This document shows positions 7,671 to 59,780 of a stretch of 64,000 bases of DNA, in pieces. The notes beneath the pieces were generated by a model, which saw only the letters and a program-made list of their open reading frames with translations, had not been told where the DNA came from and searched no databases. The DNA is from Octopus vulgaris (taxonomy: Eukaryota). Positions within the stretch are counted from its first letter, which is position 1; every line of letters begins with the position of its first letter. The translations under genes were made by a program, and so were the position numbers. Where the stretch lies: NCBI GenBank assembly GCA_951406725.2, contig OX597843.1, forward strand, positions 8,494,001 to 8,558,000. The letters are read 5' to 3'.

Positions 7671-8123
7671 ATGAATTCGCCATGGACGTTGGTAAAATGA
7701 GAAAACAAAAACAGAAAAAAAAAACACTTAACGTTTCTCTGTAATGTTTAACGTGGTTAATTTTCCCTGACGAAATCCGGTTAGATAGAAACGCTCTGCG
7801 AACCATGGACGACTATACACACCAAAAATTTTTAAAAAAAGTTTCATGTATCTGTGTATGTATGTGCGTAAGGAAAATGCTTCAAACTTTAAAACATATC
7901 TACTAAAAATATCTACAATAAAGAAAGGAGACATGATAGAAGATATAAAGAAGATTTTTCTTTGAGATAATTTTTAATTTTCGTAGAAATAATTCTTTTC
8001 AAATAAGTTAGCCGTATAAAGAACATTTTCGTTTATATAATACATTTAATTGCTTACAATAGAGAAAAACCTCATTTCCAGACCTGATACAAAGGGTTTT
8101 CCCTGGAACTTCAACAAAGGAGC

Positions 8124-18799: not shown

Positions 18800-18849
18800 A
18801 TTACCTGAAGAAGGGTTACTTAACCCGAAATATTAAAATAACAGGTAAT
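18800..18849 (+). ncRNA. Type I hammerhead-like motif (Penelope minimal type)
   Basis: attac CTGAAGA a gggtta ct taaccc GAAA tatta ... gtaat. Confidence 0.6.
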
Positions 18850-36922: not shown

Positions 36923-37006
<84 letters not shown>

Positions 37007-37231
37007 TTAGGTAGATAGGGAGATTTCCGTGTGATGGGGCAAGGTTTGTTTTTTAGCTAATTTAAGTTTGTTGTTCGTTCAAAAATGGGTACTCAAGAGG
37101 AATATCAACAGTACATGTTATCAATCAATCAGCGAATTTAGAAGACAATTGCTACAAATTAACCAGTTAATTCTTGATATCAAGTAATCTGTATATCCAC
37201 CCTACGCAACAAACTAGATACACCACGTTTG

Positions 37232-37319
<88 letters not shown>

Positions 37320-37352
37320 GATTGGTTTTGGCTGTCGGAAGCAAGAGTGGTA

Positions 37353-37405
37353 GTTTGTCTGCCTGAAGAACCTCTGCAAGCAGAGGTGAAACTTGTAGTA
37401 GCAAC
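37353..37405 (+). ncRNA. Type I hammerhead ribozyme
   Basis: ctgc CTGAAGA acctctgc aa gcagaggt GAAA c tt GTA gtag: intact core, strong stem II, minimal stem III, GUA triplet. Confidence 0.75.
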
Positions 37406-37494
37406 AGCCCGACTTCACCAAAATAAAAACATTGTTAACCTCTAATACGGTATTGAGCACTCTTTTTTGCTCGCGGCAGTCAAAACCAAAAGGC

Positions 37495-37528
<34 letters not shown>

Positions 37529-37580
37529 GTCGTATTATCAATGTAATAACCCAACTATAAGGAAAATATATATATATGAT

Positions 37581-37612
<32 letters not shown>

Positions 37613-37644
37613 TGTATGTATGTATGTATGTATGTATATATATG

Positions 37645-37680
<36 letters not shown>

Positions 37681-37861
37681 TGTATGTATGTATGTATGTA
37701 TGTATGTATATATGTATGTATATATGTATGTATGTACGCGTGTGTATAACGCAATGAAAATACGTGAAAAGTCGAAACGTTAAACCTGACGCCAAAGCAA
37801 ACACTCCGTCTCCCTATGTATATTTATATATGTATATATATATATGTGTATATATATATAC

Positions 37862-38582: not shown

Positions 38583-38635
<53 letters not shown>

Positions 38636-38741
38636 GTGTATATATGCTTACGTATATCGTTATGTCTACGATATGTCGCTCTGTATATGAAATATATATT
38701 TTGGAAAACGCGATATAAACATGATATTTTCATAGTTTGAA

Positions 38742-38796
<55 letters not shown>

Positions 38797-39390
38797 ATAT
38801 GTATGTATGTGTGTATATATGCTTACGTATAGCGTTATGTCTACGATATGTCGTTCTGTGTATAAAGTATATATTTTGGAAAACGCGATATAAACATGAT
38901 ATTTTCATAGTTTGAAATATATAATATATATATATATATGTATGTATATATGTATGTATGTGTGTATATATGCTTACGTATAGCGTTACGTCTACGATAT
39001 GTCGTCGTTCTGTGTATGAAGTATATATTTTGGAAAAGGCGAAGTAAACAAGATATTTTCATAGTTTGAAATATATAATATATATATATATATATATGTA
39101 TGTATATATGTATGTATGTGTATATATAGCTTACGTATAGCGTTATGTCTACGATATGTCGTTCTGTGTATAAAGTATATATTTTGGAAAACGCGATATA
39201 AACATGATATTTTCATAGTTTGAAATATATAATATATATATATATATGTATGTATATATGTATGTATGTGTGTATATATGCTTACGTATAGCGTTACGTC
39301 TACGATATGTCGTCGTTCTGTGTATGAAGTATATATTTTGGAAAAGGCGAAGTAAACAAGATATTTTCATAGTTTGAAATATATAATATA
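38470..39390. repeat. Six-unit ~150-175 bp tandem array
   Basis: gcttacgtata..gtta.gtctacgatatgtc...ttttggaaaa.gcga...tttgaaatatataa at ~38482, 38644, 38820, 38971, 39128, 39279. Confidence 0.95.
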
Positions 39391-39429
39391 TATATTGTAT
39401 ATATTTTATATATAAATTGTATAACTTAC

Positions 39430-39502
39430 CGGGAAACATCACTCCAGGGAGGCCTGCCAAAGCACAAGTTCTGTAGTAATCCTGCTGTTTAAGAGTTTGC
39501 AT
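39430..39502 (-). CDS. Candidate first coding exon of an unidentified gene (MQTLKQQDYYRTCALAGLPGVMFP, phase-1 donor)
   Basis: aaaatcATG start, non-repetitive open frame, ends ccg|GTAAGT (consensus donor); no downstream exon identified in window. Confidence 0.55.
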
Positions 39503-40060
39503 GATTTTTGAGTAAAATAAAACTCACTCTCTCTCCCTCTCTCGCTCGCTCTCACACACACTCTCTCGCTCTCGCTCTCTCGCTCTCTCACTGAAGTCGA
39601 AAAATCCCCCGACAAATCAAATTGCATTCATTATTCAGAACAGAAGAAGAAGTAGAAGAAGAAGCAGAAAGGGAGATCAACAGCAGCAACAGCAACAACA
39701 ACAATGACGACAGCGACGGCGTCAGCGTCGGCATAAAGGAAAAGGAGAGAAAGGGGAAAGGAGAGAAAAAAAAAAAGAGCTAAAATGGTTGCCGTTTGCA
39801 AAGAGGTGACGAGTTGTTGGCTGACGGATTTACTGAGATGAATGGTTGGTCGGTAGAGCTGGTTGGTTTGTCGGTGGGTGACGTTTGTTGGTTGGTTGGT
39901 TGGCTGGCTGGCTGGCTGGCTGGCTGGCGGCGGCTGGTCGGTCGGTTGGTTGGATGGCTGGCAGGCTGGCAGGCTGGCTGCTCGGTCGGTCGGTCGGTCG
40001 GTCGGTTGGTTTTGCGCTTCGTTCGCGTTGGCTGGGTTTTACAGCTCGGTTGAGCTTCGT
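39503..40060 (-). promoter_or_regulatory. Candidate 5' UTR and promoter
   Basis: CpG-rich island in AT-rich background; (ccag)n/(ccga)n tracts, Inr-like tcagt at ~39832-39836, YY1-like ccatttt at ~39782-39788, GA tracts before the ATG. Confidence 0.45.
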
Positions 40061-58374: not shown

Positions 58375-58433
<59 letters not shown>

Positions 58434-58510
58434 AATATCAGGGAATAAATCCAAATTTACAGAGAAAAATCAGATTTAGGATTGAATCCAATTTTATAGT
58501 AAAATATAAT

Positions 58511-58904
58511 ATAATATTAATTAGAGACAACACCACTATTATGCAAATCAAACAAAGAAAGACTTAATCCAATACATAAAAAATTTTATATAAATTAAAT
58601 AAAATTAAGTTATCCACTACAATTGTTTCCTGTCACTTCTAAGGACATTCATCAGGTGGTTTCAAGACCTTCTATTCAATTTTAAATTATGAAGTAATTA
58701 CTTCATAATTTAAAATTGAATAGAAGGTCTTTTCATAATTTAAAATTGAATAGAAGGTCTTGAAACCACCTGATGAATGTCCTTAGAAGTGACAGGAAAC
58801 AATTGTAGTGGATAACTTAATTTTATTTAATTTATATAAAATTTTTTATGTATTGGATTAAGTCTTTCTTTGTTTGATTTGCATAATAGTGGTTTTGTCT
58901 CTAA

Positions 58905-58916
<12 letters not shown>
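58511..58916. repeat. Near-perfect spacerless palindrome with one HHR in each arm
   Basis: Centre gaagtaattacttc (58691-58704); HHR ccac CTGATGA atgtc..gacag GAAA caatt GTA gtgg at 58766-58811 (+) and 58614-58659 (-). Confidence 0.92.
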
Positions 58917-58980
<64 letters not shown>

Positions 58981-59249
58981 TCATATATATATATATAAAA
59001 AAGCATGGCTGTGTGGTAAGAAGCTTGCTTCACAACCATATGGCTCTGGGTTCAGTTCCAATGCGCAGCACCTTAGGTAAATGTCTTCTACTATAGGTTC
59101 AGAATATTTTGACCGAATTTAGCTGGATCAATCACTGAAGTGTTATAGTGATCGAATAAATAGATTTTTATTTTTTGTCTTTTCCTCGAGCGAGGTCAGA
59201 CTCATGCCAAGTCTCATCTCTGTGTTTATCATTACCATTCAAGTATTTT

Positions 59250-59780
59250 TCCAGACTCAAGAGATTAAGACTCTATTCCTTAGAGCGTAGGCGAGAAAGA
59301 TATGCCATAATATACACCTGGAAGATCCTGGAAGGACTTGTCCCAAACTTTGGCATCGAGAGTTACGCAAATGCCAGAACTGGGCGCCACTGCATAGTGC
59401 CAAGGACTCCAAATTTGCCATCAAGATGTAGGACAAGATACTGTGATAGCCTGGGCTTCCGAAGCCCACAGCTCTTCAATATCCTCCCGAAAAACCTGAG
59501 GGACCTGCATGGGGTGGATGCAGATGTCTTTAAAATAAAACTGGACCCCTTCCTGTCAGGTGTCCCAGACGAACCAACTTCACGGCAGGAAGTGCAGATG
59601 AGGACAGCTGCATCGAACTCTCTCATGCACCAAATGTTAATTGCTAAAAAGCATTCGTGAAGTAAAATCATATAGCAACACCAAATGGCGGTGCCCCGGC
59701 ATGGCCACAGCTCGTGAGCTGAAACTAGATAAAATAAAATAAAATAAAATAAAATAAAATAAAATAAAATAAAATAAATA
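59250..59780 (+). mobile_element. 5'-truncated CR1-group LINE: ORF2 C-terminus, 3' UTR, (TAAAA)n tail
   Basis: RLKRLRLYSLERRRERYAIIYTWKIL...LFNILP...FKIKLDPFL resembles the post-RT region of CR1-group ORF2; stop at 59660. Confidence 0.85.

Follow-up and report, generated by a model that had tools for sequence, protein, structure and literature searches.

Is the 168-nt hairpin that lies between two microsatellites in the Octopus vulgaris genome, and that holds an intact hammerhead ribozyme motif, a self-cleaving RNA unit that was copied as a whole? We addressed this question in a 64,000-nt stretch of contig OX597843.1 (positions 8,494,001–8,558,000 of assembly GCA_951406725.2; hereafter the window, whose numbering is used throughout), from a 2.8-Gb genome rich in microsatellites. 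The original prediction, made from the sequence alone, had placed the element at 37322–37489 and proposed a retrozyme monomer or an integrated RNA circle. We instead find it highly probable that the element is an old, inert, 5′-truncated Penelope-like insertion, in which a ~135-nt hammerhead-bearing 3′ end lies head-to-head with a ~28-nt inverted copy of its own tip within a dinucleotide repeat.

An inverted repeat encloses a hammerhead motif

The outer stem that had been described as closing the element is present, as are the repeats on both sides of it (Table 1). It comprises 16 positions, 37322–37337 against 37474–37489, of which 14 are Watson–Crick pairs and two are wobbles (G–U at 37331/37480 and U–G at 37335/37476), with pair probabilities of 0.92–1.0 for the 15 pairs scored. 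Inward of these positions the pairing is real but less regular than first described: G·G (37338/37473) and A·C (37339/37472) mismatches are followed by four pairs, a 4-nt U bulge and a short helix, and both the mismatches and the bulge had been left out. The fold reached z = −3.5 on the + strand and −3.2 on the − strand, below all 200 shuffles on both strands. As both strands fold nearly equally well, the locus is primarily an inverted repeat. An integrated viroid-like circular RNA was considered and rejected: the interior is mostly unpaired in the centroid structure, and the hammerhead motif is single and confined to the + strand.

Table 1 Features of the element and its flanks, in window positions
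Feature	Position	Strand	Basis or remark
(AC)n(AT)n microsatellite	37234–37319		Left flank, likely insertion target
Inverted, heavily 5′-truncated copy of the repeat's 3′ terminus (left stem arm)	37320–37349	−	Profile match and pairing with 37458–37489
Junction between arms; partly bulged extension of stem I	37350–37359		Single-copy in genome
Type I hammerhead motif	37355–37407	+	Core, GAAA and three stems; predicted cleavage after 37400
Direct copy of the ~135-nt hammerhead-bearing repeat (pseudo-LTR-like 3′ end)	37360–37495	+	87 bits, E = 3.6e-26 to family profile
Segment predicted to pair with 37385–37390, sequestering GAA of the core	37414–37419	+	Pair probabilities 0.39–0.48
Tail-like segment between the family's two preferred 3′ ends	37430–37495	+	Arm-end counts in the family
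(GT)15 microsatellite	37498–37527		Right flank

The presence of a genuine type I hammerhead motif in the window copy is supported by all features of that type: a CUGANGA core, GAAA, UH and three stems. The core is complete (CUGAAGA at 37363–37369 and GAAA at 37388–37391), stem II (37370–37387) has 7 bp and a 4-nt loop at a probability of about 0.5, and stem I (37355–37362/37401–37407) consists of 3 bp, a bulge and 4 bp. The core and the strong stem II stand as originally described, but the GUA site does not: the cleavage-site region reads GUAGUA, and the GUA of related copies aligns with 37398–37400. Homology places the predicted cleavage site after 37400, and not after 37397 as first proposed, with stem III at 37391–37393/37397–37399. 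For a site at 37397, stem III would have only 2 bp and a 2-nt non-palindromic loop, but stem I would be somewhat more stable. In a computed nearest-neighbour ensemble, which ignores magnesium and tertiary contacts, the active fold made up about 1e-4 for cleavage at 37400 and 3e-3 for cleavage at 37397, the latter counting only stems I and II, and a helix between 37385–37390 and 37414–37419 occupied the GAA half of the core about half of the time. In the 64-kb window, no match to an Rfam family attained the gathering score, and no hammerhead model was among 39 weak matches over 37000–37800.

The direct arm belongs to a dispersed repeat family

A genome search with the window element returned ten other places at 73–85% identity, each starting at query position 43 or later, in the ribozyme, and none including the window's left arm and junction. 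With two relatives as queries, a first look yielded 342 and 626 candidates, of which 40 were scored in each search. After 4 duplicate loci had been dropped in one search and 16 duplicates in that with the second relative, the family set comprised 81 distinct loci including the window. There are hundreds of candidate copies, and the copy number, being based on BLAST candidates, is a lower bound. The search for further copies of the unit, a check suggested by the original prediction, thus returned a dispersed repeat of ~135 nt that starts near stem I, and the 168-nt junction only once. In the window, family homology continues to about 37495, past the previously assigned end at 37489.

The 70 long arms compared have a median identity of 85.5% to the majority letter; the window copy carries that letter at 101 of 128 columns (79%) and is among the four most diverged of the 70. 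At the 5′ side the ends are variable, with some copies reaching 100–190 nt further upstream; this extension is non-coding and, in L005, stops within about 200 nt. Two 3′ ends are preferred: 29 of 43 inverted arms end at profile positions 70–95, and 66 of 81 long arms at 136 or later, with a tail of ~55–60 nt between the two. Distal 3′ ends adjoin dinucleotide repeats in 52 of 66 cases, compared with 11.6% of background stretches.

The family majority sequence folds into all three hammerhead stems, with five pairs in stem I, six in stem II and a palindromic stem III. Because the core is intact in 22 of 56 copies, its integrity in the window copy is not unusual. Conservation is slightly higher at core positions than at base-matched others (0.907 versus 0.870, excluding the window and the loci found by core pattern, L012–L027), a difference biased by the finding of loci with core-holding queries. 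Covariation in the hammerhead stems, another suggested check, did not rise above shuffles: across 24 copies, two-sided changes affected 1 of 14 pairs, a level equalled or exceeded in 426 of 500 shuffles. Of 95 arms, that of the window alone has Watson–Crick pairs throughout stem II, and this stem carries a G–C to C–G swap that was seen in 2 of the 95. We found no publication on this family by title or abstract start; it may be catalogued in repeat libraries such as Repbase or Dfam.

About 8 nt ahead of stem I, some copies (L108, L130, L151, L048, L041 and L053) carry a pyrimidine tract with CAG at its end, which resembles the intron end reported at helix I of a Drosophila element in passages of PMC4209133. 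Family positions 35–125 may also contain splice signals, with a candidate donor located in stem II and a candidate acceptor close to the 3′ end. Related repeats with part of the family's 3′ segment occur at L098:4971 (−), upstream of L120 and at L097:4903 (+). The one at L098 also has stem III in common; its core contains a U-to-C change, and stem I is lengthened by its inverted arm, so that the ribozyme is likewise enclosed in a long stem.

The left arm is an inverted tip of the same repeat

The left arm of the window element matches family profile positions 109–144 on the − strand, weakly on its own (4.8 bits), and aligns with the inverted ends of L026 and L151. Judged by its sequence, it is the repeat's own 3′ end in inverted form, copied over ~28 nt. 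Opposite-strand arms lie upstream at 37 of 81 loci when at least 15 bits are required and at 43 when at least 4 bits are required, the latter count being too high by one, as the opposite arm of L120 belongs to another repeat. Inverted arms that end at the distal end are present in 3 of 43 cases (the window, L025 and L007), and a start of both arms from the distal end is uncommon, with the window and L007 the only instances among the 81 loci. In L025 and L151 the inverted tips are short (about 35 and 45 nt), and their junctions differ from that of the window.

Within 3 mismatches, the window core was found in the genome only at its own locus. The junction likewise matched only itself at 0 mismatches, and at 3 mismatches it matched three unrelated places, none in a family copy; a pattern of inverted tip plus core start occurred at six places (control, one), none of them a convincing family copy. 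The layout recurs with other break points and the junction is single-copy, and hence the 168-nt unit itself does not recur.

A probable Penelope-type origin of the insertion

Penelope insertions are described in passages of PMC8557442 as 5′-truncated, often with an inverted truncated copy at the 5′ side, with an optional tail and a bias towards microsatellites. During integration both strands are cut and extended with uncleaved RNA as the template, and two internal reverse transcription (RT) starts lie 111–118 nt from the start of stem II (PMC11167929). Hammerheads of metazoan Penelope-like elements (PLEs), according to passages of PMC4209133, combine a long helix II with a short helix I, occur mostly singly or as opposite-strand pairs, cleave poorly and are probably dimer-dependent. 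The family fits this picture. It shares with the published insertions (PMC11167929 and the passages of PMC8557442) a hammerhead ~120 nt from the 3′ end, within a terminal repeat (~110–125 nt; in the window the distance from that end to the start of stem II is ~125 nt), an inverted copy at the 5′ side, two 3′ ends, a microsatellite or AT-rich target and variable 5′ truncation. Its tail of ~55–60 nt, however, is longer than the published 30–40 nt, both arms of the window element start from the distal end, and no linked open reading frame (ORF) was found for the family. As in the short-helix-III hammerheads of metazoan PLEs covered by passages of PMC4209133, helix II has 7 bp, helix I is short and helix III is palindromic in the family majority. 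By contrast, the base of stem II is A–U in the window and U·U or C·U in most family copies, where those passages give a highly conserved G–C, and the helix III loop of the window lacks the family palindrome.

The window element most likely passed through an RNA stage. On the basis of published Penelope biology, we propose that a Penelope RT/GIY-YIG protein would have nicked both strands of the AT-rich target, and that two cDNAs would have been primed at the distal site inside an uncleaved RNA, ~120 nt downstream of the hammerhead. One cDNA would have run through the ribozyme and the other would have stopped after about 28 nt; joined head-to-head, they would have left the terminal stem as a by-product of integration. 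The copy would then have drifted neutrally, and the few matching changes in both arms would likely stem from arm-to-arm template switching or a variant template.

Searches for an RT + GIY-YIG frame linked to the family found none. The family profile had one match, a separate related repeat, in 30 GIY-YIG loci (30 of 150 scored, of 6136 candidates); tblastn near the family loci detected one remnant ~1 kb from 1 of the 81 loci; and two upstream searches for an autonomous parent ended in unrelated repeats. A possible, though rather unlikely, alternative is that the family is a non-autonomous, retrozyme-like Penelope derivative of a few hundred bases without an ORF of its own, with the window copy as one truncated monomer and the stem still a product of integration. 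This would agree with the absence of a linked ORF in 81 loci, with the non-coding upstream extension and with one locus (L011:1290–1590) where three head-to-tail units of ~88 nt end at the proximal 3′ end; passages of 10.64898/2026.07.22.740005 indeed report retrozymes as non-autonomous Penelope derivatives. Yet L011 is the sole retrozyme-like tandem: a profile scan found no head-to-tail array in 80 of 81 loci, the window locus included, and head-to-head arms dominate. Moreover, passages of PMC4209133 lead one to expect short ORF-less stubs from 5′ truncation alone. Such a derivative differs from the Penelope-like insertion favoured here only in the nature of the template RNA.

Metazoan non-LTR retrozymes are described in passages of PMC7229834 as head-to-tail tandems of 150–450 bp that are expressed as circles. 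With these (PMC7229834 and 10.64898/2026.07.22.740005, in the passages concerned) the window element has in common that it is short, non-coding and AT-rich and carries a type I hammerhead, whereas it has one ribozyme, a head-to-head arm and no tandem. Direct membership of the retrozymes was rejected, as neither a tandem unit (the ribozyme is single) nor an amplified unit (no second copy exists) was found.

Taken alone, the window copy matters little: as a Penelope-like stub it has hundreds of aged counterparts, and stubs of this kind are already known from many animals. The family provides a usable natural data set for Penelope integration, as its two 3′ starts and the priming of both strands fit the in vitro model, and its paired arms have rare letters in common three times above chance.

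Wobble pairs and pairing do not indicate a self-contained RNA unit

A transition in an inverted repeat produces a G–U pair on one strand and an A–C mismatch on the other. The position of both G–U wobbles on the ribozyme strand had been taken as a mark of RNA; the two wobbles are there, but finding two of two on one strand has a chance of 1 in 4, and family arms show no such preference (150 G–U versus 154 A–C, p = 0.86, at 2050 arm-to-arm positions in 35 other arm pairs). The G–U argument for selection on RNA fails. The arms of the window element are alike at 24 of 28 positions, which is not significantly above the family's 74.5% (p = 0.12); arms below 20 bits, except those of L001, L007 and L025, were left out of this arm comparison.

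The original prediction amounts to a 168-nt self-contained structured RNA unit, a circle or retrozyme monomer, copied in whole, with its stem kept by selection on RNA. We consider this very improbable. Its stable fold on the + strand, intact core, best-paired stem II of the 95 arms and two wobbles on the ribozyme strand would suit such a unit, but the − strand folds almost as well, the next transition just inside the stem (37339/37472) has the opposite polarity, and the identity of the arms does not exceed that of the family. In addition, one ribozyme would be unable to release a unit with two cleaved ends, and the cleavage site is internal and not at the ends of the unit. The junction is single-copy, the stem consists of the repeat's own 3′ end in inverted form, sister arms have many lengths, and the core is broken in the probable orthologue described below.

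A probable orthologue has lost the ribozyme core

In sequencing run X5, from another organism, a 153-nt contig matches 37328–37433, including the left arm (but not the right arm) and the junction, behind an (AC)n repeat, and a second contig matches the window's unique left flank. From these two unjoined contigs, with depths of 5.7 and 4.5, we infer a probable orthologue. The X5 element differs from the window at 10 of 103 letters and the unique flank at 8 of 110 (p = 0.62). Its core is changed at 37364 and 37365, and 3 nt are missing at 37395; these changes would be expected to disable the ribozyme. With a broken core and divergence like that of the flank in the probable orthologue, the insertion likely predates the split from the X5 organism and is likely not conserved as a ribozyme. 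The stem II swap is common to the window and X5, and so likely arrived with the inserted template. Runs X1–X3 gave no piece spanning the element; X1 and X3 gave none on the flank either, so that a filter is likely, and we do not claim presence/absence polymorphism.

Could this lineage nevertheless have retained the Penelope-type stub for a function, as a hairpin or as a cleaving RNA? The window's arms have two rare letters in common (37324 and 37327), at which the left end in X5 has the family letters, and these left-arm changes since the inferred split match the right arm. A further window change since the split, at 37380, lengthens the stem II palindrome, and weak-to-strong changes are more frequent in the window (12:7) than in other copies (448:544). 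However, rare letters are common to paired arms throughout the family (24 of 183 versus 7.9 expected), so that the window is not special. The arms of L046, which clearly reflect homogenisation or a variant template, are alike at 50 of 54 positions and have 5 of 8 rare letters in common; as passages of PMC8794818 describe, template switching can perfect a stem in one event. The shift in the mutation spectrum is not significant (p = 0.16), and few structures of the computed ensemble take the active fold (about 1e-4 for site 37400). We therefore give only a slim chance to retention of the stub, and an equally slim one to its fullest form, a hammerhead domesticated in a mollusc, in which a ribozyme lost in the sister lineage was kept here and polished, with a perfect stem II and matching arm changes, into a working self-cleaving hairpin. 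The locus would matter if the window copy were transcribed, cleaving and under selection in this lineage.

The original prediction rightly set aside a DNA MITE, in which terminal inverted repeats would surround an incidental hammerhead, and this reading has next to no probability: inverted ends do surround a short non-coding body, but there are no uniform copies with both inverted ends, the family ends are asymmetric and variable, the two flanks are different repeats with no target-site duplication visible around the element, and the family majority folds into all three hammerhead stems.

Other hammerhead-like motifs and retroelements

Elsewhere in the window, a near-perfect palindrome between (AT)n repeats (58400–58940) contains two head-to-head hammerhead motifs (58626–58655, −; 58770–58799, +). 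It shows the same insertion layout at a younger age and belongs to another family. A hammerhead-like pattern had 13 matches at 10 places in the 64 kb, compared with 1.35 expected. More such motifs lie at 7767, 18805, 47435, 53733, 54999, 56710 and 5799, and those at 18805, 47435 and 56710 resemble motif-bearing repeats at other loci of the genome.

RT + GIY-YIG elements are also present in this genome; they carry direct terminal repeats, end at (AT)n and occur with inverted copies and an optional tail. Among them is an apparently intact Penelope-like element with a cysteine-rich linker (Neptune-like; L095:430–5672, L096 and L097). Its RT + GIY-YIG frame has 781 residues, and upstream of it lies a separate frame of 359 residues that matches no Pfam family clearly. 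The direct repeats of 456 nt are 99.3% identical, the optional tail has 33 nt, and the hammerhead is a variant in which one core pair is changed. Many places with equal frame length and score suggest that this element may have been recently active. The window's family resembles the autonomous Neptune-like elements (L095–L098) in having a hammerhead-like motif ~100 nt before the end that adjoins (AT)n, an optional tail and inverted copies; unlike it, they have the 781-residue frame, and their terminal repeat is unrelated.

Two further features of the window are a tandem repeat of about 155–175 nt interleaved with microsatellites (38583–39520) and an open frame (59160–59660, +) that we take to resemble the C-terminal part of a LINE reverse transcriptase.
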